In this document: positions 2,936 through 13,276 of the stretch, one piece after another
Position numbering within the stretch: position 1 is the first letter of the stretch
How the letters are laid out: every line of letters begins with the position of its first letter
From: Alphaproteobacteria bacterium
GTDB lineage: Bacteria > Pseudomonadota > Alphaproteobacteria > SP197
Reading direction: 5' to 3'
DNA: 64,000 bases
Assembly (NCBI GenBank): GCA_965228895.1
Contig: OZ245842.1
Coordinates: 3,520,001 to 3,584,000 of the forward strand
Translations under genes and position numbers: made by a program
Notes under the pieces: generated by a model
The model's database searches: none
What the model saw: only the letters and a program-made list of their open reading frames with translations
What the model was told of the DNA's origin: nothing

Positions 2936-4108
2936 TTAGGCCGCCAGAAGACGGCCCGCGTACCAGGCGGCAAATGCCGCGACATTCGGCTCCATCAGCA
3001 CCGAATAGCGGCCGGGCTGGGCAAATGGCGAGGCCATGCCGCGCTGCTGGTTCTCCAGCGCCGGCACGTCTTCGGCCAACGCCGCGTCGAGCCGGATATA
3101 GTACTGCTCCGCCTTCGCCTCGAAATCAGGCAGTGCGATCGTCTCTTTGGGAAAACAAATGGACTGGATCACGCGGCATCGCTCAGGCCCGTCGGGATAG
3201 GCCTCATAGACCCACATCGCGTCGGTGCCGGCGGCAAACGTCAGGTTCGGGAAGAGCCACGTATAGCGCACGCCGCGCGCGGCCTTGCCGGTCAGGCCGG
3301 GGATCTTTGGCAGCGCATGGTGCTGCTGGCTCTCCAGCAATCCGCCGGTGCCTTCGGTCACGCCGTACTGGGTCGCGTAGTCGCCGGTGACGGGATCGCC
3401 CGGCTCCGGCGGGTCATAGAGATCGCTCAACGAGTCCGGATGCACATAGGGCAGGTGATAGTACTCGTTGAAAACGTCCAGAAAGCCCTTCCAGTTGCAG
3501 TCGACGGCGAGCTCGCGCCGGCGCGTCAGCACCAGGTCCTCGATCGGCCACGGCGCGTGCATGGCAACGAAGTCGCCGATTTGCGCGTCGAGGTCCGGAA
3601 TCTCCGGGTCCAGACAGACAAACAGAAAGCCTGCGCGCACCCCGGTCGGAAACGCAATCAGGCCGTAATCCGATGTGTCGAAGGACGCGGTCTGATCCAT
3701 GTGTCCGCCACCGACCAGTTCGCCGGTCAGGCGATAGGTCCAGCAATGGAACGGGCAGCGGATCATGTCGGTCGTGCCCTCGCCCGCCAACAGTTGCGCG
3801 CCGCGATGACGGCACGTGTTGGCAAAGGCACGGACGTCGCCTTGTTTGTCGCGCAGGATGATCAGCGGCACGTCGGCGATGGTCATGGTCACGTAGTCGC
3901 CGGGCTGGCGCACCATGTCGGCGCGTCCGACCGAGAGCCAACCGCGACGAAACACGGCGGGGCGCTCGCGCACCACAACGTCGGCGTCGTGATAGCAGAC
4001 CGGCGGCAGACTTTCGGCTTCCGAAATCGGTGCCATGCATCGCGCAAGCGCCTGATCAAGCGGTGATGCGTGATCCTGCTTGGCGGACGGAACCGCGGCG
4101 ACAGCCAT
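2936..4108 (-). CDS. Rieske non-heme iron oxygenase alpha subunit (choline monooxygenase / N-demethylase-like)
   Basis: CRHRG...CPFHCW Rieske motif; NWK...EYYHLPYVH iron site; ED...E.QQRG. Confidence 0.9.
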   Translation of the reverse strand: MAVAAVPSAKQDHASPLDQALARCMAPISEAESLPPVCYHDADVVVRERPAVFRRGWLSVGRADMVRQPGDYVTMTIADVPLIILRDKQGDVRAFANTCRHRGAQLLAGEGTTDMIRCPFHCWTYRLTGELVGGGHMDQTASFDTSDYGLIAFPTGVRAGFLFVCLDPEIPDLDAQIGDFVAMHAPWPIEDLVLTRRRELAVDCNWKGFLDVFNEYYHLPYVHPDSLSDLYDPPEPGDPVTGDYATQYGVTEGTGGLLESQQHHALPKIPGLTGKAARGVRYTWLFPNLTFAAGTDAMWVYEAYPDGPERCRVIQSICFPKETIALPDFEAKAEQYYIRLDAALAEDVPALENQQRGMASPFAQPGRYSVLMEPNVAAFAAWYAGRLLAA

Positions 4109-4110
4109 GT

Positions 4111-4752
4111 TCAGACCGCCACGTTGATCTGACCGGACTCACGCTGCATCGCGACATCCGGCACCACCAGCGGTTCGCGCGCACCCGGCCGCATCACCGC
4201 TTCGTCAAAGGCTTTGCGGGCGAAAACCTCGAGCACCAGCGGCGCAAAGAAGTCGAGCGAGAGGTTGGCGTAACCGGGATCGAAACTTGTCTGGTCCCAG
4301 CGCTCACAGAACGCGACGCAGTCGTCGAAATAGGGATGACCGCGATGGGCCTCGCGCTCGTTCGGATCCTCGCCCAGCTTGTCGGCGAAGTAGATCTTCT
4401 GAAACCCGCCGTGTTGCTCGACCGTCCATACGCACTGTTCGCGGATGTAAGGTTTCAAGACGATCGCCGCATACTCACCGTGCATGTAGGGCGCGTGGAG
4501 ATCGCCGATATCATGCAGCAGCGCCGCGACGACCCAGTCGATGTCGGCGCCGTCATACCAGGCGCGCGTCGCCGATTGCAGCGAATGACCGAGCCGCGAG
4601 ATCTGATAGCCGGAATAGCCGCCCTCAAGACCGGCCATGGCGTCCAGCAAGCGTTCGCCGGTTTGTCCGGCATAGGTGATTTCGTGCTCGCGCAGAAAGG
4701 CGTAGTCCTCGACGTCGCCGTCACACATCTGGGTGAACTTCACATGCTCCAT
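4111..4752 (-). CDS. HD-domain protein (PhnZ/TmpB-like HD oxygenase/phosphohydrolase family)
   Basis: HSLQSATRA...ALLHDIGD...H...H...WDQTSFDP pattern; ATG 4752 preceded by AGGAG. Confidence 0.8.
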   Translation of the reverse strand: MEHVKFTQMCDGDVEDYAFLREHEITYAGQTGERLLDAMAGLEGGYSGYQISRLGHSLQSATRAWYDGADIDWVVAALLHDIGDLHAPYMHGEYAAIVLKPYIREQCVWTVEQHGGFQKIYFADKLGEDPNEREAHRGHPYFDDCVAFCERWDQTSFDPGYANLSLDFFAPLVLEVFARKAFDEAVMRPGAREPLVVPDVAMQRESGQINVAV

Positions 4753-4863
4753 GGGGCCGATCTCCTGTGTCGTCCTTCCGACTTTGAGGCCCAAACCGGC
4801 CCTGGACAAACAGAAAGTTCGAGGTCATAGCTATAAGCTGAACTAATTGACCCATCAGTTGCG

Positions 4864-5736
4864 ATGGCTACGCCCTTACCGCCCTTTACTTGGCTGCGTG
4901 CCTTCGAAAGCGCCGCGCGGCTCTTGAGCTTCACCGGCGCCGCGGACGAGCTGAACGTCACCCAATCGGCGGTCAGCCAGCATATCCGCTCGCTCGAGGA
5001 ACGGATCGGCAAGCCCCTGTTCGTCCGCAAGGCGCGCGGTCTGGCGCTGACCGATGACGGCCGGAGGCTTCTGCCCTACGTCACGGCCGCCGTGTCGGAG
5101 CTGTCGTCGGGCCTCTCTGTGGTCGCGCCCGACGCGCCCGAGACCGTGCTGCATGTCGCCGCCAGCATCAGCTTCGCCCAGTTGTGGCTGGCGCCGCGCC
5201 TGCCGGACTTCCAGCGCGATCACCCAGGACTGGGTCTGCGTATCGTGAGCGCGCTGTGGTCCGACGACTACCTGCATACCCGCGCCGACGTGGAGCTGCG
5301 CTATGGCACCAAGGATATGGTTGGCGCCGATGCGCTCAAACTCGTCGATGATCAGGTGGTTCTCTACTGCACGCCGCAGATGGCCGCCGGAATCAAGACC
5401 TGGGACGACGTGTGCACCGCGCCTTTGATCCACACTGTCGGCACGTCGGACACCTGGCAGACCTGGACGCAACACCTGGGCCTTGCACCGCCGGTCGCGT
5501 TTTCCCATTCGGTCGACTCCTATGTGCTGTCGATGGAACTCGCCCGCTCCGGCGTCGGCGTGGCGCTTGGCAGCCGCTTCCTGGGCGAACGGTTGGTCGC
5601 GAGTGGCGAGGTCGCCGTGCCACTGGACCTCTCGACACCCGCACGGGAGAACCACTACATCACCATCAACGGCGGCTCGGCGTTGCGCCGCCAGGCCGAA
5701 ACGTTTCGCGACTGGATCGTCGGAGAGATCGCCTGA
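4864..5736 (+). CDS. LysR-family regulator (GcvA-like)
   Basis: LPPFTWLRAFESAARLLSFTGAADELNVTQSAVSQHIRSLE helix-turn-helix; divergent from the HD-Rieske pair. Confidence 0.92.
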   Translation: MATPLPPFTWLRAFESAARLLSFTGAADELNVTQSAVSQHIRSLEERIGKPLFVRKARGLALTDDGRRLLPYVTAAVSELSSGLSVVAPDAPETVLHVAASISFAQLWLAPRLPDFQRDHPGLGLRIVSALWSDDYLHTRADVELRYGTKDMVGADALKLVDDQVVLYCTPQMAAGIKTWDDVCTAPLIHTVGTSDTWQTWTQHLGLAPPVAFSHSVDSYVLSMELARSGVGVALGSRFLGERLVASGEVAVPLDLSTPARENHYITINGGSALRRQAETFRDWIVGEIA

Positions 5737-5820
5737 GCGACAAGGCGCGCCCGACCTGGGGTCACGCGCTGACCTGTGCTATGCAGGACACCGAGCGCCA
5801 CGCCATGGGGGATGAAGGGG

Positions 5821-6903
5821 ATGGCACTTGGCGGCGGCCGCCCGGATGCCGTGCAGCACGGGCTACCGCAAATCGAAATCGGCGCGGCTGGCGATGTCGG
5901 CCCGCATCTCGTTTCGCTCGTCTTCGAGGAAATCGTCAACCGTCCTTCCCGCTGCGTCCTTACACTGGACGAAGCCGATGGCCAGGGCGGGTATCGTTAT
6001 GACAACGACCGGTCGATCGACTTCGGCGCGGCCGTCGACCTCTCGCTGCTGACCGGCGGCGGAACGGCCGATCCGTCGTTCACCGGCCGCGTTTTCGCTC
6101 TCGCACGGCGCATGGAACACGACAGCGGCCCGCGTCTGGTCGTCGACGCCTATGACCGGCTGCAGGATCTCGCCATGGCGCGCCGCTCGCGCCAGTTCGA
6201 GGAGACGACCGCCGCCGATGTCATCGCGTCGATCGCCGGCGACTACGACCTCGCGGCCGAGGTCGATCTCGATGGCCCCGTGCATCCTGTGCTCGTCCAG
6301 GCCAACGAGAACGACCTCGCTTTCTTGACGCGCCTGGTCGACGATCTCGACGGTGAGCTCTGGCTCGACGGCGACACCTTCCGCGCAAGCCGTCACACGG
6401 CGCGGCCGGGCGCAACCGTCACCGTACGGCCCAACAGCGATCTTTTCAGTCTCGCCATCGACGCCGACCTCACGAGCCAGCACCGCGACCTCTCCGTCCA
6501 CGGTTGGGACCCCGCCGTCAAAGACGCCTTGGCAGCGACCGCCGACTATGAGGCGATTGCTGGCGAGGTGACAGGTCAGGTCAGCGGCGGTCAGTGGCTC
6601 GCCATCCTCGACGCGCCCGGCCCCGATCCCGAGCAGCGTGTCGTCCACCGGACGCCGGCCAACAATGACCACGCCAAGAGCCTGGCCAACGCCACCTACG
6701 CCCGGGTGTCACGGGAGTTTGTTAGGCTGCACGCGCTGGCGCGCGGGCGCGCCGAACTCGGGGTCGGCGCCAAGATAGACCTACAAGGCGCGGGCGCACG
6801 TTTCGACGGTCACTACGCCATATGCCGCGCCCGCCACACATTCGATGCCGAGAACGGCTACCGCACGGAAATTGATGCCCGAAGGAGCGGCCTGGGACGA
6901 TGA
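5821..6903 (+). CDS. Phage late control D / VgrG hub-like protein of a contractile injection system
   Basis: FTGRV.ALA, AYDRLQDLAMARRSRQF, VQANENDLAFLTRL, GARFDGHY...RHTFD...GYRT pattern of gpD/VgrG hub proteins. Start uncertain (5776-5821). Confidence 0.85.
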   Translation: MALGGGRPDAVQHGLPQIEIGAAGDVGPHLVSLVFEEIVNRPSRCVLTLDEADGQGGYRYDNDRSIDFGAAVDLSLLTGGGTADPSFTGRVFALARRMEHDSGPRLVVDAYDRLQDLAMARRSRQFEETTAADVIASIAGDYDLAAEVDLDGPVHPVLVQANENDLAFLTRLVDDLDGELWLDGDTFRASRHTARPGATVTVRPNSDLFSLAIDADLTSQHRDLSVHGWDPAVKDALAATADYEAIAGEVTGQVSGGQWLAILDAPGPDPEQRVVHRTPANNDHAKSLANATYARVSREFVRLHALARGRAELGVGAKIDLQGAGARFDGHYAICRARHTFDAENGYRTEIDARRSGLGR

Positions 6904-7610
6904 ACGAGATAGCGAAACAAGCGGCAATCCCACACGATCAGCGTTTGCCCGGTGACCTCGGCGGCCTGTTCTATGGCGTCTATCCCGCAACGGTCACCGA
7001 CAACCGGGACCCTGCGGGTCAAGCCCGGATCAAGGTCACGTTGCCCTGGCTGACGGACCAGGATCCGCCATCGCTGTGGGCGCGCCATGCGGTGCTGAGT
7101 GCCGGGCCGGACCACGGCTCTCGATTCACACCCGCGATCGGGGCCGAAGTGCTGGTCGCCTTCGAGGCCGGCGATGTTTCGCGTCCCTATATCGTCGGCG
7201 CGTTGTGGAACGGCGTCGACCGGCCGCCCGAGACATCGGACAAGCCTGGCTACGACACCCAGATCCTGTCGACATCGCGCGGCACCCGTGTCGTGTTCGA
7301 TGAGAACGCGGACGGTGGCACGCTGCGCCTCGAAACAGCAGGCGGCCAACGTGTTGTTCTGACCGATTCACCGGAAGGTCTGATTATCGAGGACGCAAGC
7401 GGCAGTCGCATCAAACTGGAGCCCAGCGGTATCTGTATCGAGGCGCCCACCAAGGTCGAGGTCAAGGCCGCGCAAGTCGACATTTCCGCAGCCGTCATCA
7501 GTCTTGATGCCGCCATGGTGCAGGCTTCCGGCGTCGTCAAATGCACGACACTGCAGACCGATACCGTCATCGCGTCGACCTATACGCCCGGCGCCGGCAA
7601 CGTCTGGTAG
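6900..7610 (+). CDS. Phage baseplate assembly protein V / VgrG spike (gp5 OB-fold)
   Basis: YGVYPATVTDNRDP.G.ARIKV.LPW, WAR, P.IG.EVLVAFEAGD..RPYIVGALWNG; C-terminal TYTPGAGNVW; ATGA overlap with the upstream gene. Confidence 0.9.
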   Translation: MNEIAKQAAIPHDQRLPGDLGGLFYGVYPATVTDNRDPAGQARIKVTLPWLTDQDPPSLWARHAVLSAGPDHGSRFTPAIGAEVLVAFEAGDVSRPYIVGALWNGVDRPPETSDKPGYDTQILSTSRGTRVVFDENADGGTLRLETAGGQRVVLTDSPEGLIIEDASGSRIKLEPSGICIEAPTKVEVKAAQVDISAAVISLDAAMVQASGVVKCTTLQTDTVIASTYTPGAGNVW

Positions 7611-7631
7611 TCCTGCTTGGTCAAGTACGTG

Positions 7632-8420
7632 TCAGGTGTTGGGCAAAGGCGCCGGAAAGCATCTGGGAAAATCTGAAACTAACTTTGCTGCTTGTTCGTC
7701 ATTCACACTTCGAACGTAGTTCAGAACAGCTGAGCTCACTGGACCTTCACCGTTAGTCTGAACCGCCAGGCAAAATTCGGCATAGCGCTTTTCTGCGATC
7801 GTAAGTCCTGCTTTGTCCGTATCTATATTGAAGGCTGAGATTGCTGTCGATGGACCAACTGACTTCTCGTCGTTAACGGGAAAGTTCGACCTCTCAGCGG
7901 CAGCTCTAAGACTGTTAGTCGCCTCCTGTACCTGATCCTGGTTGTGTCCTGACACAATGATGTCGTCAACGTACACAGTTGCCGTGACCATTAGTTGTCT
8001 TAGGCAATTGCCTAGATCACTCTTATCTAATGCTAGAGAGGCCAGGAGAGGAGACTGAACAAATCCATACGGTAGGCCAAAGCGTTGTCGCCGATGATCA
8101 ACGCGCACTGTACTAGCGACAGCAAACTCTTCGGCATCGCGGAAACTGAAGCCGATAGTCTTCAGACTTCGTGTAACTCTGTTTCTCCGAACATTGCCAA
8201 AAAAGTTGCTTAGATCAAGCTTGGCAAGCCACGGGTTTCCGGAATGAGAGCGCAAAGCGGCAACATGGCCACCTCGCTGATAGTGAAAGAAAAAACTGGG
8301 CGCATTCCAGTTTTTTCGAATAGCACGAACATGAGCTTCTGCCTCGAACGCCAGTTCTTCGAGTTGTATGTAAACCCATTTCCCACTTGGTAGTCGGAAG
8401 CGCGATTGATAGTTTCTCAA
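7632..8420 (-). CDS. Small reverse transcriptase (retron-like or unclassified group), 262 aa
   Basis: RT motifs in correct order: LAKLDLSNFF (catalytic Asp), LPYGFVQSP (motif B variant), YVDD (7962-7973), FPVNDEKS; GGHVAALRSH lies where retron RTs have NAxxH. TTG start with GGAG upstream; lower GC than the flanks. Confidence 0.9.
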   Translation of the reverse strand: MRNYQSRFRLPSGKWVYIQLEELAFEAEAHVRAIRKNWNAPSFFFHYQRGGHVAALRSHSGNPWLAKLDLSNFFGNVRRNRVTRSLKTIGFSFRDAEEFAVASTVRVDHRRQRFGLPYGFVQSPLLASLALDKSDLGNCLRQLMVTATVYVDDIIVSGHNQDQVQEATNSLRAAAERSNFPVNDEKSVGPSTAISAFNIDTDKAGLTIAEKRYAEFCLAVQTNGEGPVSSAVLNYVRSVNDEQAAKLVSDFPRCFPAPLPNT

Positions 8421-8428
8421 CGTTCGAG

Positions 8429-8545
8429 CTATCTCCGACTGTAGTTAGTGATTAGGCTCACAACCATGTAGACAAGCAAAGCGAAGCGTAGAACTTCGTT
8501 TGCCAGCATTACGTAGCTGCGAACCAGATGCGGGTTAAACCTCAT
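8429..8545 (-). CDS. 38-aa single-transmembrane peptide upstream of the RT (below the ORF-track cutoff)
   Basis: MRFNPHLVRSYVMLANEVLRFALLVYMVVSLITNYSRR*; strong SD (TGAGGAGA) 6 nt before the ATG; stop 8 nt before the RT start; hydrophobic core with basic C-terminus. An in-frame ATG also exists at 8560. Confidence 0.7.
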   Translation of the reverse strand: MRFNPHLVRSYVMLANEVLRFALLVYMVVSLITNYSRR

Positions 8546-8560
8546 CGGTTCTCTCCTCAT

Positions 8561-8730
8561 CCCTGGCCATCTTGACGCCGAAGCGTACCCAATCTCTAAC
8601 CAATAATGCGTTGCCCAGCTGATCAGACAGTTGCAACCAACCGGTCAACTCCCGGACAACCTGAGATGGCTCACGGGGTAGTCCCGAGATGCCACTTAGG
8701 GTCGTCGTGAGGAGATCCCTATTGCCAGGG
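8561..8730 (-). ncRNA. RT-associated structured RNA (retron msr/msd-like)
   Basis: Terminal inverted repeats CCCTGGCaAT (8730-8721) / ATgGCCAGGG (8570-8561) enclosing hairpins at 8697-8721, 8667-8694, 8610-8637 and a C(UUCG)G tetraloop hairpin at 8575-8586; starts just after a predicted -10 box. Confidence 0.7.
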
Positions 8731-8736
8731 CACCGA

Positions 8737-8766
8737 ATAATATCGTGATTGCAATCCCTTTTTCAA
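8737..8766 (-). promoter_or_regulatory. Sigma70-like promoter of the ncRNA-peptide-RT cassette
   Basis: TTGAAA (8766-8761), 18 nt spacer, TATTAT (8742-8737); predicted transcription start about 8730-8731. Confidence 0.6.
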
Positions 8767-8913
8767 CCCAAGGTGTAAGATCCGCAGTGTTCGATCAAGC
8801 AGGTGAAGTCGGTCAACATCGCCACCTTGGCCGTTTAATGGATGTCGCAGTTGACATCTAAAGCTATCCTGCATGGAGCAGTACAAGTTTGCTGCTGCAG
8901 GGGGAGAAGGACC

Positions 8914-10578
8914 ATGAAGGACGGCTATTACGATCTGGGCGACCACAGCTTCGCCATCACCACGGGTTCGGCCGAGGCGCAGACCTGGTTCGATCGCGGA
9001 CTCATGTGGTGTTACGGCTTCAACCACGGCGAAGCCGTCGCGTGTTTCCAGAAGGCGCTCGCCGCCGATCCCGATTGCGCGATGGCCCACTGGGGCGTCG
9101 CCTATGCGCTCGGCCCCAACTACAACAAGGCGTGGGAAGCCTTCGACGATGTCGAACTGCAGTCCGCCCTGGCCGATGCCTATGACGCGACGCTGAAGGC
9201 GACGGCGCTGGCCGACAAGGTGACCGATGTCGAGGCCGCGCTGATCCGCGCGCTCCCCTCACGTTATCCGACGGCGACACCATGCGACGACACCGCGCCG
9301 TGGATCGAGGAGTTCGCCAACCGCATGTATGACGTCTGGCGCAGCTTTCCGAGCGATCCGGATGTCGCGACACTCGCCGCCGATGCGCTCATGAACCGCA
9401 CGCCCTGGGCGTTGTGGGATCTGAAGACCGGCGAGATTGCCGAGGGCGCGCGAACCGCCGACTGCGCAGAGATCCTGGAACTCGCCATGGAGCGCATCGA
9501 AAGCGAAGAGCTGCCGCGCCATGCCGGTCTGCTGCACATGTACATTCATCTGATGGAAATGTCGCCGCACCCACAGAAGGCGCAGGTCGCCGCCGACCGC
9601 CTGCGCAATCTGGTGCCCGACTCCGGTCACCTGCAGCACATGGCGACCCATATCGACGTCTTGTGCGGCCACTATCAGACGGTCGTTGATTCCAACCAGG
9701 ATGCGATCGATGCGGACACGAAGTTCCTGGAACGCGAAGGCGCCTTCAACTTCTATTCGAACTACCGCGTCCACGATTACCATTTCAAGATCTACGGCGC
9801 GATGTTCCTCGGTCAGTCGAAGGTCGCGCTGGAGACAGCCGACCAGATGGTCGCGACTTTGCCGGAGGATGTCTTGCGCGTTGAATCGCCGCCCATGGCC
9901 GACTGGCTCGAAGGGTTCGTGCCGATGAAACAGCACGTCCTCATCCGCTTCGGCCTGTGGGACGACATCATCGCCCAGGAGCTGCCGGCCAACAAGGACC
10001 TCTACTGTGTCACCACCGCGTTGATCCATTACGCCAAGGCGGTCGCGCACGCCGCCTCCGGCGACGTGCCGTCAGCGGAAGGCGAAGCCGCGCTGTTCGA
10101 TGCAGCGGTCACGCGCGTGCCCGACACCCGCTATGTCTTCAACAATTCCTGCCTCGACATCCTGGCGGTCGCGCGTGAGATGATGCTGGGCGAGATCGAA
10201 TACCGGCGCGGCAATCACGACGCCGCTTTCGCGCACTTGCGCAACTCCGTCGAGCTCGACGACAACCTGCCCTATGACGAACCGTGGGGCTGGATGCAGC
10301 CGACCCGTCACGCGCTTGCCGCGCTCTTGATGGAGCAGGATCGCATCGACGAGGCAGCTCAGGTCTACCGCGCCGATCTCGGGCTTGACGATACCCTGAG
10401 CCGCGCCTGCCAGCACCCGGACAACGTTTGGAGCCTGCACGGCTATCACGAGTGCCTGCGCCGGCTGGGCCGCGACGAAGAAGCCGACATCATCAAACAA
10501 CGCCTGGACCTCGCCGTCGCGCGCGCCGACGTGCCGATCAAGAGCTCCTGCTTCTGCCGGCTGAAACACGCGGCCTAG
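8914..10578 (+). CDS. Conserved TPR-containing protein of unknown function
   Basis: AQTWFDRGLMWCYGFNHGEA...ADPDCAMAHWGVAYALGPNYN, YDEPWGWMQP.RHAL and terminal SSCFCR; GGAG before ATG 8914. Confidence 0.8.
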   Translation: MKDGYYDLGDHSFAITTGSAEAQTWFDRGLMWCYGFNHGEAVACFQKALAADPDCAMAHWGVAYALGPNYNKAWEAFDDVELQSALADAYDATLKATALADKVTDVEAALIRALPSRYPTATPCDDTAPWIEEFANRMYDVWRSFPSDPDVATLAADALMNRTPWALWDLKTGEIAEGARTADCAEILELAMERIESEELPRHAGLLHMYIHLMEMSPHPQKAQVAADRLRNLVPDSGHLQHMATHIDVLCGHYQTVVDSNQDAIDADTKFLEREGAFNFYSNYRVHDYHFKIYGAMFLGQSKVALETADQMVATLPEDVLRVESPPMADWLEGFVPMKQHVLIRFGLWDDIIAQELPANKDLYCVTTALIHYAKAVAHAASGDVPSAEGEAALFDAAVTRVPDTRYVFNNSCLDILAVAREMMLGEIEYRRGNHDAAFAHLRNSVELDDNLPYDEPWGWMQPTRHALAALLMEQDRIDEAAQVYRADLGLDDTLSRACQHPDNVWSLHGYHECLRRLGRDEEADIIKQRLDLAVARADVPIKSSCFCRLKHAA

Positions 10579-10670
10579 AGCGGATAGTGGTTAGGTGGAG
10601 CCGGTGGCGGTTTCACCTAACCACGTGAATCCGCTCTAATTTTATGAGTAGAGCAGATTCACCTGCTCCA
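10576..10670. repeat. Alphaproteobacterial palindromic intergenic repeat (CIR/RIME/BRU-RS-like)
   Basis: TAGAGCGGAT...GTGGTTAGGTG...CACCTAACCAC...ATCCGCTCTA long inverted repeat (10576-10638) followed by a partial second TAGAGCAG..CTGCTC unit; supplies the TAG stop of the upstream gene. Confidence 0.7.
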
Positions 10671-10853
10671 GCGGGAAACAGACCAACGCTGACCGTGGCG
10701 CAAGATCGATGAAGTGTGTCGGCGCTCACTGTCGAATACAATTATATGTTGCAGTCTCTCCGTCGAATGAAACGCGCGTTGGCGTGATGACAGCCACATC
10801 TCGGCTTGCCAAGGCTGTTTGTGTTGCGCGGATCCATGACGATAGAGGCGTCA

Positions 10854-11309
10854 ATGAAACGAGTGCTGGTCGGGTTGCTGTGCACCACATTGTCCGTTCC
10901 CGCTCATGCCGAACTGGTCGACTTGAGGACATGGGCGAGTGCTTCCGAGGCTCAGGGCAGCAATGAATACCTTGCCGTTCGCTGCGCGGGTCTATCGCAA
11001 AGTCTTTTGTCGTACTTGGATAGCGAGGGATCCGACGCCGCGTTGGCGCAGGGCCTGCGACAGGGAAGCGACCTGTTCGCCAGCATGGCCGTTCTCATGC
11101 GCACGGCCGCAGACAATCCGGCGTCAGAAACCGCTGCCAGCGCGGATGTCAGGATGCATGTTGACTACGTTGCCATGCTGTACGTCCGAAGAATGGACGA
11201 GAACCTTGCAAAGGCTGAGACAGCGTTCGACAACGACGACCTGATTCTGTTCGACTTTGAGCTCTGCGGGACGGTGCTGCAGCAATTCAACGCCATGCAA
11301 CAGCCGTAA
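10854..11309 (+). CDS. Hypothetical secreted protein
   Basis: Signal peptide MKRVLVGLLCTTLSVPAHA; GAGG SD; two Cys in the mature part. Confidence 0.65.
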   Translation: MKRVLVGLLCTTLSVPAHAELVDLRTWASASEAQGSNEYLAVRCAGLSQSLLSYLDSEGSDAALAQGLRQGSDLFASMAVLMRTAADNPASETAASADVRMHVDYVAMLYVRRMDENLAKAETAFDNDDLILFDFELCGTVLQQFNAMQQP

Positions 11310-11415
11310 CCACAGCCAAAACCGAACACGTTTCTTTGTCGATCACGTCGACCAACACGTTGCGATCGAAAGCTCCTTGTTCTGCCCGCTCAAACGCGCG
11401 GCCTAAGAAACAGAG

Positions 11416-11787
11416 TCAGCGCGAGCGTGAACCGGCCCGGGCAAGGGACCTCTTCTTGCCGGGGCTCTGCTCGATGTCGGTCTTCATGCGACCCAAGAGA
11501 TCCACGGCCTCGGACGCATAAGAGCCGATCCAGCGGTCGTGGATGTGTTTGATCGGCAGCGCGTTCAGATAGTTCCAGCGCTGCCGGCCGACGCGCCTTG
11601 CGATAACGAGATCGGCGTCTTCAAGAACGCCCAGATGCTGCATCACCGTGCAACGGTCCAACGCGTCAAACCGTTGGCATAGCTCGCCCGTCGTTTGTGG
11701 GTCGTCGCGCAGCGCGTCGAGCAGGTCCCGCCGAAGCGGCGAGGCCAGCGCCTTGAAGATCTTGTCGTCATCGGTGCTCGTTGACAT
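11416..11787 (-). CDS. ArsR/SmtB-family regulator
   Basis: IFKALASPLRRDLLDAL...TTGELC...TVMQHLGVLEDADLV.ARRVGRQRWNYLN. Confidence 0.9.
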   Translation of the reverse strand: MSTSTDDDKIFKALASPLRRDLLDALRDDPQTTGELCQRFDALDRCTVMQHLGVLEDADLVIARRVGRQRWNYLNALPIKHIHDRWIGSYASEAVDLLGRMKTDIEQSPGKKRSLARAGSRSR

Positions 11788-11805
11788 GTTATACTTTTAT
11801 AACAT
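11786..11805. promoter_or_regulatory. ArsR operator palindrome between the divergent arsR-like and SRPBCC genes
   Basis: ATGTTATA-cttt-TATAACAT perfect inverted repeat overlapping the regulator start codon. Confidence 0.7.
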
Positions 11806-11833
11806 AATGATCTCGTACGCAAGGAGTCACGCC

Positions 11834-12295
11834 ATGGAGCTCAAGTTCGAGATAAGCGGGCGAATCAACAAACCCGTCGAGGAGGTCTTCGAGGCCGTTG
11901 TGAATCCAACCGAACTCTCCGGCTACTTCACGACCGGCGGTGCCGAGGGACGGCTCGAAACCGGCGCCACAGCCTCGTGGAAGTTCCACGACTTTCCCAA
12001 CACGATCCCGGTGACCGTCATCGAGGTCGAACAGAACCGCCGCATCGTCCTGCGGTGGGAAGCCGACGAGACAACCGGCGAACCCGACGGACCCTACGAC
12101 ACCAGCGTCACCTTGCGCTTCGAAGCGCTCGACGGCGGGCGCACGCTCGTGTCAATCGCCGAGGAAGGTTGGCGCCACAACCAGACGGGGCTCAAATCCT
12201 CCTACTCCCACTGCAGCGGCTGGATGCAGATGCTGTGCTCTTTGAAGGGCTACCTTGAACACGGCATCAATCTGCGCGAGGGCATGTTCCGGTAA
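11834..12295 (+). CDS. SRPBCC/AHSA1-domain protein
   Basis: INKPVEEVFEAVVNP..LSGYF, IVLRWE, GRTLVSIAEEGW, GW.QML..LK.YLE; AAGGAG SD. Confidence 0.88.
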   Translation: MELKFEISGRINKPVEEVFEAVVNPTELSGYFTTGGAEGRLETGATASWKFHDFPNTIPVTVIEVEQNRRIVLRWEADETTGEPDGPYDTSVTLRFEALDGGRTLVSIAEEGWRHNQTGLKSSYSHCSGWMQMLCSLKGYLEHGINLREGMFR

Positions 12296-12427
12296 GCGCC
12301 CTGCCCTCCATCACATCGCTACGACCGCGCCCAGACAGTCTGGAAGTTACCCTGCGACTGCCATAGATTGTGCCGCGTTCGATCCGACCGGCCGCGCCGC
12401 ATCACATAGCTGACAGGGAGAAGACAG

Positions 12428-13276
12428 ATGATCACAGGAAGCTGTCTGTGCGGCGCCGTGCGCTGGCAGGTCGACGGCGATCTCGGCACCATGAGCCATT
12501 GTCACTGCTCCATGTGCCGCAAGGCGCACGGCGCGCCCTTCGGTACCTATGTCAGCGCGGCATCCGACAACTTCCGCTGGCTCGGCGGCGAGGAGACCAT
12601 CTCGACCTATGAGTCCTCGCCCGGTTTCGTGCGTGCGTTCTGCGGGCAATGCGGCTCCGTCGTGCCGGACCCGGCGGACGATGACGGTCATGTCTTCATC
12701 CCCGCCGGCGGTCTGGACAGCGATCCCGGCGTCAGGCCGGAATCGCACATCTTCGCCGCGACAAAGGCGCCATGGCACATCATCGGTGATGATCTGCCGC
12801 GCCACGACGCCTACCCCGGCCCGGACGACGGACCGAACATCGACCGTCCGGCGCAAGGCACGGTGCAGGGCGGTGTCTTGCACGGCAGCTGTCTGTGCGG
12901 CGATATCGCGTACGAGGTGACGACGCCGATCAAGACCGTCCACAATTGCCATTGCACGCGCTGTCAGAAGGCGCGCGCCGCCGCCCACACGACCAACGGC
13001 TTCACGTCACCCGACGGCGTCACCTTCGTGCGCGGCGAGGACAAGCTCGTGATCTACAAGCTGCCGGAGGCCAAAGCATTCGCCCAGGCCTTCTGCTCAC
13101 GCTGCGGCTCTCCAATGCCGCGCGTCAACAAGGAAGCCGGTTACGCGGCGATCCCGTTCGGTTCGCTGGATGACGATCCCGGCCGCGGCGCCGACGACCA
13201 CATCTACACAAGCTCGAAGGCCGTCTGGTACGACATCGAAGACGACCTGCCGCAATACGCCGCATTGCCGGATTAG
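12428..13276 (+). CDS. Tandem double GFA/CENP-V domain protein, copy 1
   Basis: Two GSCLCG...CHCxxCxK...FCxxCGS zinc-binding modules. Confidence 0.9.
   Translation: MITGSCLCGAVRWQVDGDLGTMSHCHCSMCRKAHGAPFGTYVSAASDNFRWLGGEETISTYESSPGFVRAFCGQCGSVVPDPADDDGHVFIPAGGLDSDPGVRPESHIFAATKAPWHIIGDDLPRHDAYPGPDDGPNIDRPAQGTVQGGVLHGSCLCGDIAYEVTTPIKTVHNCHCTRCQKARAAAHTTNGFTSPDGVTFVRGEDKLVIYKLPEAKAFAQAFCSRCGSPMPRVNKEAGYAAIPFGSLDDDPGRGADDHIYTSSKAVWYDIEDDLPQYAALPD

Follow-up and report, generated by a model that had tools for sequence, protein, structure and literature searches.

Between positions 7616 and 8893 of the 64,000-nucleotide stretch of contig OZ245842.1 analyzed here (the window), from an Alphaproteobacteria bacterium, lies a small cassette composed of a structured RNA, a small gene and the gene of a compact reverse transcriptase (RT), all of them read on the minus strand. 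From sequence and fold comparisons, the cassette appears to represent an undescribed retron-related family of three-part RT cassettes, working most like a retron. No description of the family was found in the literature, and the classification tables of PMC7736814, PMC9226505 and PMC8934634 might list its members as unclassified or as UG11, a group now counted with the retron lineage (PMC9226505). The cassette is self-contained: beyond the RNA, the small gene and the RT, no neighbor or effector gene is conserved among 46 loci, and the largest shared neighbor cluster covers 3 of the 46, which are close relatives. As to its working, we tentatively favor a retron-like particle in which the RT, its leader RNA and probably a complementary DNA (cDNA) restrain the small hydrophobic protein until phage perturbation, a reading that is quite possible if not quite probable.

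The features of the cassette in the window are as follows.

7616..8893, no strand assigned: inserted cassette (island) of about 1.28 kb, delimited by comparison within the genus and by the dip in guanine-plus-cytosine (GC) content
8737..8766, minus strand: sigma-70-type promoter, with -35 box TTGAAA (8766..8761), 18-nucleotide (nt) spacer and -10 box TATTAT (8742..8737), 10 of 12 consensus matches
8561..8730, minus strand: structured RNA domain of 170 nt, closed by helix P1
8730..8724 with 8567..8561, minus strand: helix P1, CCCTGGC with GCCAGGG, a perfect complementarity of 7 base pairs (bp)
8697..8721, minus strand: hairpin P2 (TAGGG 8721..8717 with CCCTA 8701..8697), opened by UAGG 8721..8718
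8666..8695, minus strand: hairpin P3, consensus GUCAC-UNU-GUGAY, longer and bulged in the window; borders approximate
8610..8649, minus strand: variable hairpin P4, from single-sequence folds; borders approximate
8598..8603, minus strand: single-stranded UURRYU motif (UUGGUU in the window; alignment columns 219-224), 5' strand of pairing P6
8575..8586, minus strand: hairpin P5, ACGC-UUCG-GCGU in the window and GCGC-UUU-GCGC in the family
8553..8557, minus strand: Shine-Dalgarno sequence AGGAG of the small open reading frame (ORF), seven bases before ATG 8545
8429..8545, minus strand: small ORF of 38 amino acids (aa), ATG 8545 to TAG 8431..8429
8442..8446, minus strand: AACUA (the whole Asn codon with UA of the Tyr codon), 3' strand of P6
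7632..8420, minus strand: compact RT of 262 aa, TTG start at 8420, YVDD at 7973..7962, Pfam RVT_1 at 8e-19

The first-pass annotation of the window had described a minus-strand unit in a lower-GC patch, made of a TTGAAA-18-TATTAT promoter, an RNA of about 170 nt bounded by inverted repeats, an ORF of 38 aa and a minimal RT of 262 aa starting 8 nt later, and each of these parts is present as described, the perfect heptamers of P1 enclosing exactly 8561-8730. The GC content is 0.47-0.53 across about 7600-8800, against 0.62-0.69 on either side. In a genome of the same genus (G001), genes for a gpV-like and a TPR protein lie 74 bp apart, and the window has 7616-8893 in that place; relative to this genome, the cassette is an insertion. 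The 5.5-Mb host genome holds one copy.

The promoter at 8766..8737 is the only strong promoter-like site in 7400-9000 (two overlapping calls, against 0.9 +/- 1.0 in shuffles), and its -10 box lines up with TGnTAnnnT boxes at homologous loci, so that the position is kept. Transcription is predicted to start at about 8731-8729, the first base of helix P1. Most likely, a single sigma-70 promoter drives a single transcript.

The conserved RNA upstream of the reverse transcriptase

Loci were taken from genomes (80), metagenomes (80) and viral contigs (15). The leaders of 35 loci were aligned and folded with RNAalifold, and the pair counts were made on our own structure string. The fold recovers the closing helix P1, which is paired at 97.1% in the 35 loci, with compensatory changes on both sides at 6 of its 7 pairs. 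P3 is paired at 85.6%, with 3 of 5 pairs changed on both sides, and P5 at 87.7%, with 5 of 7. The 19 pairs of P1, P3 and P5 taken together are paired at 90.7%, against 31-40% for slid partners, and the observed values were reached by none of 500 column shuffles. P4 differs between loci in both length and sequence.

In its 5' half, the family RNA consists of P1, two bases, the UAGG that opens P2, then P3 and P4; in its 3' half, of the single-stranded UURRYU, P5 flanked by CC and GG, in most loci CUAGG, the second strand of P1 and the ribosome-binding site. The A and G of UAGG are invariant (35/35 loci) and are paired in the local minimum-energy fold of 73 of 99 distinct sequences. This invariant AG stands 4-5 nt past P1, usually paired in P2, and the base directly after P1 is G in 29 loci, A in five, the window included, and U in one.

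The covariance model R1 was built on the 35-leader alignment. Of 177 sources, 134 give it a match directly upstream of the RT: 55 of 81 among the genome loci (window included), 64 of 80 among those from metagenomes and 15 of 16 among those from viruses or phages. Twenty of the 55 genome loci, and all of the metagenome and viral ones, had no part in its training. In the whole window it has one match, at 8543..8746 on the minus strand. The misses are mostly cut contigs or members of a divergent RT subfamily, largely of Rhizobiales. The RNA upstream of the RT is real and conserved, and it had been anticipated that RT homologs would keep both this fold and the upstream small ORF, which was aligned in 39 of 39 sequences. 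Rfam gave no match at E<=1 in 7000-9500.

The divergent subfamily (L047-L050, L055-L065, L067-L075, L078 and L079), mostly from Rhizobiales, has RTs that match the query only over residues ~32-216. One of its loci, L055, was read by eye and presents a P1-like UUCAGC/GCUGAA helix, AAUAGG, and a small ORF in which VVNY is kept.

Another observation concerns the strings CUAGG after P5, UAGG after P1 and CCUAG within the small ORF. The last is kept family-wide in the Arg-Leu-Val codons (~7-10), by way of a CUA Leu codon, and parallel variants occur in some clades (CUGGG with CCUGG). This may point to a further RNA contact or a repeated recognition element; a palindrome and wobble pairs are involved, and the window is without it.

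The small gene and its pairing with the RNA

The small ORF is a genuine gene, as indicated by its Shine-Dalgarno site, the substitution bias at third codon positions and the lack of stops. An ATG is aligned in all of the 39 sequences compared, with a purine-rich, Shine-Dalgarno-like stretch before it; the ORF listing of the window gives 43 aa from ATG 8560, and the alignment of homologs favors the start at 8545. Among 94 same-length pairs of 70-99% identity, differences at codon positions 1, 2 and 3 number 588, 387 and 942; the synonymous share of differing codons is 39%, against 17% and 9% in the shifted frames; and 3773 codons contain no stop, against 395 and 211 stops in the other frames. 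The product ranges from 38 to ~93 aa across the family and is annotated in RefSeq as a hypothetical protein in Escherichia coli.

The protein of the window has a basic N-terminus, one long hydrophobic or amphipathic helix and a C-terminal Asn-Tyr. This ending is found in 36 of the 39 sequences, with Phe-Tyr in two and an aberrant end in one, L025. Within 34 peptides, only Met1 and the Tyr are invariant, Asn is kept in at least 90%, and the mean column identity is 18%. The aberrant sequence, L025, is from a Photobacterium metagenome-assembled genome (MAG); its small ORF of 61 aa is without Asn-Tyr and ends 133 nt before the RT, with an apparent insertion between the two, and R1 scores 70 bits there.

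The codons of this ending are also one strand of an RNA pairing. P6 is a 5-bp long-range pairing of the UURRYU loop with AAYUA of the small ORF. In 108 dereplicated loci, position 4 of the loop is G where the Asn codon is AAC (87 loci) and A where it is AAU (11 loci), with no mixed case; in the remaining 10, one of the two P6 elements is absent or the locus belongs to the Phe-Tyr group. Since either base at the third position of the Asn codon leaves the protein unchanged, the covariation is a sign of base pairing. Parsimony on a quickly built tree of the RTs asks for five changes to explain the A:U state, at least two of them forced by well-supported branches, and one change separates the sister loci L036 and L038. 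The viral loci add one A:U case, and the others with a readable motif obey the same rule. In the UUAGCU clade a C-A mismatch is retained and three flanking pairs are gained (UGA with UCA).

P6 implies a functional RNA of about 290 nt in the window, extending to the Asn-Tyr codons if not beyond; the extent first given to the RNA thus holds for the 170-nt domain, and the functional molecule runs on into the small ORF. P1 and P6 interleave in the manner of a large pseudoknot, and the RNA may account in part or in full for the conserved Asn-Tyr motif of the small protein. Inside the small ORF there is also a terminator-like hairpin, followed by a U-rich tail, at 8482-8498 on the minus strand (one found against 1.4 expected by chance); it could be the 3' end of the RNA or an attenuator.

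The pairing of UURRYU with the Asn-Tyr codons means that a ribosome reading them would unzip the RNA. The template or scaffold RNA and the mRNA of the small gene could then be one interlocked molecule in which translation gates reverse transcription or the release of the effector, the boldest version being that the Tyr primes in trans; we hold this unlikely, though if true it would be a translation-coupled RT switch of a kind undescribed for retrons or DRTs (RT-based defense systems), and in its boldest version the 38-aa protein would be the smallest known terminal protein.

That last idea can also be taken by itself, with the small protein as a miniature terminal protein whose invariant Tyr hydroxyl primes the RT in trans. 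The Tyr is the sole invariant residue besides Met1 and persists in the SFY/LFY loci, which have Phe in the place of Asn (L029, L115, L164 and L042), and the RT is without an extra domain to carry a priming residue. Internal tyrosines prime in Abi, DRT9 and DRT10, and Tyr priming is the rule among known protein-primed RTs (PMC12632851). On the other hand, P6 by itself might be enough to impose AAY-UAY in this frame and with it Asn-Tyr; the related metagenome loci L100 and L119 carry Asn-Leu (AACUUG) in its place; and nothing puts the Tyr near the active site. Retron RTs, the closest relatives, are not known to use protein priming, and we consider this explanation improbable. The Asn-Leu of L100 and L119 may be a tolerated variant or a sign of decaying copies.

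The small protein is tied to the RT at the level of translation. In most loci its ORF overlaps the RT gene by 2-26 nt or more, the relative frame of the two being constant, and in the window its stop lies 8 nt before the RT start. This usual overlap of the RT start with the end of the small gene indicates that both proteins are made together. In-frame fusions of the two were found in L029 (312 aa), in P0221 (316 aa, with ATNY followed by a six-residue linker) and in L046/P0247; the RT of the last is also frameshifted and L046 is a long-read MAG, so that this fusion may be an assembly error. In the model of the L029 fusion, the small-protein segment is one long helix at residues 8-55, with a predicted local distance difference test (pLDDT) score of ~90 for 11-40. 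The fusions suggest that the two proteins act together physically and leave undecided whether the small one is effector or subunit.

If it is a subunit, or a detached N-terminal helix serving oligomerization or RNA docking, the cassette would be a two-component RT-RNA system without effector, acting through its DNA product or host factors. This is rather unlikely in our estimation, though several findings fit it: the coupled translation in a constant frame, the three fusions, a helix that is amphipathic and charged and that continues into the RT in the fusion model, and an RT about 50 residues shorter N-terminally than that of Ec86. Furthermore, fusion-model residues from 44-46 on align with N-terminal residues 10-31 of several retron RTs, and stand-alone RNA-RT retron cassettes are on record (PMC7736814). 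However, retron effectors are also found fused to RTs (PMC9226505, PMC7736814), so a fusion is compatible with an effector; the L046 case is possibly an artifact; and the peptide, at its 18% mean identity, is very variable, which is unusual for a tightly docked subunit.

The reverse transcriptase and its relation to known systems

The RT is a member of a uniform, unnamed family of about 300 clusters. A word-indexed search of a 90%-identity database raised 1970 candidates, of which 471 were relatives at E<=1e-3; the best 120 have 169-299 aa. With a HMMER profile, 1.84 billion cluster representatives (50% identity) yielded 294 at E<=1e-30, 662 at 1e-10 and 5431 at 1e-3, and almost all of the best 150 have 236-289 aa. 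Twenty residues are invariant in 117 family sequences and all are present in the RT of the window; the invariant blocks include GGH, LPYGFVQS, YxDD, AFN and YVxSVNxxQ. The AlphaFold2 model of the RT is predicted with a pLDDT of 96.8 and a predicted template-modeling score (pTM) of 0.90, and the protein ends ~60 aa after motif 7, with no extra domain.

The nearest relatives in both sequence and fold, over the full length and thumb included, are retron RTs. Among described systems, the retrons Ec86/Eco1, Eco7, Ec78, Ec83 and Eco8 come closest (PMC7736814 classifies retrons into types I-XIII). A profile search of the PDB sequences put the RT of retron Ec86 first, at 6e-10 over RT residues 57-256, an alignment that spans the fingers and the complete thumb; profile position 57 corresponds to Ec86 residue 106, and ~50 N-terminal residues of the Ec86 RT are without counterpart. 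The best 11 Foldseek hits of the RT model are all retron RTs (TMq 0.65-0.74), and in VIA-align the L029 fusion model gave Z 19.2-20.8 for retron RTs (243-264 residues), followed by G2L4 at 18.3, the RT of diversity-generating retroelements at 18.0 and GsI-IIC at 17.8. Other retron-like traits are a structured RNA upstream on the same strand, closed by inverted repeats as by retron a1/a2; the tripartite logic of an RNA, an RT and one small partner; and carriage as prophage cargo.

NAxxH and VTG are the defining signature motifs of retron RTs. The corresponding positions read AAL(R/K)xH and AFN(I/V) in this family, with H59, F197 and N198 invariant or nearly so. Unlike retrons, the family has AFN and not VTG; its RT is the N-terminally shorter one noted above; and its RNA pairs with the coding sequence of its partner through P6. 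The base after the 5' repeat is mostly G without being invariant, and it may or may not correspond to the branching G that retrons conserve there. No threshold of a retron-type model is reached: the PADLOC profiles RT_IX and RT_II-A score 59 and 52 bits on the RT of the window and RT_VI scores 62 on the member from E. coli and Klebsiella, over the core only, and retron_St85_RT of NCBIfam, whose cut-off is 235 bits, reaches 58. The partner, a single helix of 38-77 aa, is unlike any effector in the table of PMC7736814, as far as its available text goes.

Type VI retrons combine a small RT, a Cro/C1 helix-turn-helix (HTH) protein and a helical accessory protein of 75-79 aa (PMC7736814), and are similar in the small RT (the PADLOC RT_VI profile has 279 positions) and in the small accessory protein beside it. 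They differ in that the present cassette is without an HTH gene and its small protein is one helix, not a three-helix bundle; the 62 bits of RT_VI are a core-domain hit and not membership.

DRT10 (UG17) consists of a non-coding RNA, a SLATT membrane protein and an RT (PMC12632851). It has in common with the cassette an RNA, a small or membrane partner and an RT, as well as short conserved RNA motifs, which in DRT10 dictate the reaction. Its RT is of another lineage (RT_UG17 scores 36 bits) and far longer, with the C-terminal priming residue at 444 or 456 in the examples given (PMC12632851), and no SLATT family was found for the peptide in Pfam or PADLOC. Among the other UG/Abi models, Drt9 scores 51, RT_UG36 34.5 and RT_UG33 33 bits; in NCBIfam, Drt3a reaches 31 bits against a cut-off of 200, and Drt2 11 against 390.

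DRT2 (UG2) likewise has an RT with a structured 5' RNA whose ends are joined by a stem, and here identical UAGG strings stand at both ends; the RT lineage differs. A hidden gene like the neo that DRT2 makes by rolling-circle synthesis was considered and rejected, given that the lengths of the UAGG-UAGG unit fall 33, 31 and 42 times on the three remainders modulo 3 and that a stop-free concatemer occurs in 18 of 106. DRT1 (UG1) and UG5-large, RT-nitrilases that require a small membrane protein (PMC8632793, PMC9226505), share the small hydrophobic protein beside the RT; their RTs are large, nitrilase-fused UG/Abi enzymes, unlike the bare retron-type core of ~255 aa found here. Two other classes were discarded. 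No direct or inverted repeat of at least 25 nt touching 7616-8893 was found within 4000-13000, against a diversity-generating retroelement; and for a group II intron, Rfam gave no match, TIGR04416 scored 40 bits against a cut-off of 300, and the RT ends ~60 aa after motif 7.

For the RT family, PADLOC gave matches to the core domain only, a CRISPR-associated RT included (59-62 bits), and in PHROGs the RT matches only a generic polymerase family. The architecture had not been recognized among described types at first, and indeed the family level was reached for no retron or DRT and in none of PADLOC, NCBIfam, Rfam and PHROGs.

RT-based bacterial immunity has lately given several unprecedented mechanisms of DNA synthesis (DRT2, DRT3, DRT9 and DRT10). 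The present family would be a further lineage, placed with the retrons in the RT tree. Its third component is unusual, and through the pairing of RNA and codons, translation is connected with the folding of the RNA. Its RT of ~255 aa is the smallest in this survey and the whole system has 1.1-1.3 kb, which makes it attractive for retron-style genome editing.

Mobile context and proposed function

The cassette is mobile, traveling with P2-like prophages, integrative elements and variable islands as their cargo. In thirteen phage records of Klebsiella pneumoniae it stands at the very end of the genome (the one record looked up is of Peduoviridae), in the order tape measure, gpU, gpD, ogr, RNA, small ORF, RT, genome end. 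Among 5426 complete E. coli genomes, 34 have it, 29 with an identity of >=99%, between ogr and ssrA; in strain C2 (L184), the copy at 4001-5130 is 99.9% identical to that of the Klebsiella phage and closes a P2-like prophage that is integrated next to ssrA. The L044 locus has gpD and an ogr-like zinc finger upstream of the cassette. Fifteen IMG/VR contigs carry it, several of those of 30-42 kb at one end. This P2-like site, after ogr and at the prophage end, is not the variable P2 locus surveyed in PMC9122126. Ten neighboring proteins sampled from eight loci included an integrase with an ArdC-like protein, a PLD-SNF2 helicase, an AAA_13 ATPase and a NucS-like nuclease. Such a context is as would be expected for a phage-borne defense or exclusion system, and the trio, which hundreds of bacteria and P2-like prophages share, is probably a phage-defense module of a new kind.

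In the mechanism that we favor, the RT would bind its own leader RNA and copy part of it into DNA, and the resulting RT-RNA(-DNA) particle would hold inactive the small hydrophobic protein, the only candidate effector. Phage infection would disturb the particle, and the freed peptide would stop the cell, probably at the membrane, with abortive infection or superinfection exclusion as the outcome. P6 would tie the folding of the RNA to the translation of the small gene.

Several observations weigh against this mechanism, or against its retron and defense components. The best 19-aa hydrophobicity is mostly 1.6-2.7 across the peptides and 1.84 in the window, and in most peptides 1-3 charged residues, two in the window, lie within the hydrophobic stretch, which is a poor fit to a free toxin; a basic residue also occupies a fixed mid-helix position in most. 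The three in-frame fusions and the obligate co-translation with the RT fit a free toxin no better. The ESM Atlas cluster nearest to the peptide is TisB; its score, 0.80, is attained by shuffled sequences in one-third of cases. As for the RT, the retron enzymes are ahead of group II-like RTs and those of diversity-generating retroelements by only ~2 Z units, AFN occupies the position of the Ec86 VTG, and priming from a 2'-OH in the retron style is unsupported, since G follows P1 in only 29 of 35 loci. Finally, some loci lie beside housekeeping genes, such as gyrB (L007) and cytochrome b561 (L035), and the defensive role is deduced from the mobile and prophage-cargo context only.

The first-pass annotation had inferred a minimal retron-like or new RT defense system; the conserved unit of RNA, protein and RT and the retron-like RT bear this out, and defense comes from the cargo context. 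It had further taken the peptide for a transmembrane one and for the sole effector, of the size of a type I toxin. Neither claim was borne out, the former in view of the hydrophobicity maximum and the two charges within it, the latter in view of the conserved charges, the coupling to the RT, the three fusions and the invariant residues tied to P6. TisB-type type I toxin peptides are similar in size and composition and have a structured leader just before the ribosome-binding site; they differ in that the present peptide is co-translated with the RT and sometimes fused to it, and Pfam TisB does not match the window peptide. No antisense RNA gene was found, though no search aimed at one was made. 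The window peptide had no match in Pfam, NCBIfam, PADLOC or PHROGs, and other family peptides had none in PHROGs or PADLOC, apart from a borderline PADLOC hit to Csm2 for one of six. The predicted complex of RT and small peptide scored 0.02, a value that speaks neither for nor against binding.

Alternatively, the cassette could have no part in immunity and be a retroelement of a selfish or regulatory kind, for example an addiction module or a regulator benefiting the prophage, that persists through being difficult to lose. It is small and mobile, without nuclease, ATPase or other classical effector, and in single copy in the host genome, and a hydrophobic mini-protein behind a structured leader resembles, as a weak look-alike, the type I toxin-antitoxin loci. 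However, the RT is under strong purifying selection, with its 20 invariant residues and intact YVDD, and its places, as terminal cargo of temperate phages and beside defense-like genes, are typical of anti-phage systems; addiction and defense are not exclusive. We regard this explanation as a long shot. Since a native E. coli copy exists, every one of these hypotheses can be tested by routine genetics.

Some observations were also made on the genes around the cassette in the window. Two adjoining genes occupy 5776-7610 on the plus strand, first one of gpD type (Phage_GPD, 375 aa) and directly after it one resembling the gpV/VgrG spike (Phage_base_V, 236 aa), and the pair looks like an orphan, split VgrG-like pair, not a whole prophage. 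Upstream of it is an ORF of 290 aa (4864..5736), which by eye only has the look of a LysR-type regulator. The insertion point is 6 nt past the stop of the gpV-like gene; P2-like phages carry the same cassette after gpD-ogr. On the other side, a TPR ORF of 578 aa on the plus strand is listed from ATG 8842. Similarity to the same-genus genome picks up again only at ~8895, at a conserved GGGGGAGAA ribosome-binding site, so that the first 24 listed codons lie inside the inserted cassette, and the real start is probably ATG 8914 (MKDGYYDLG...).

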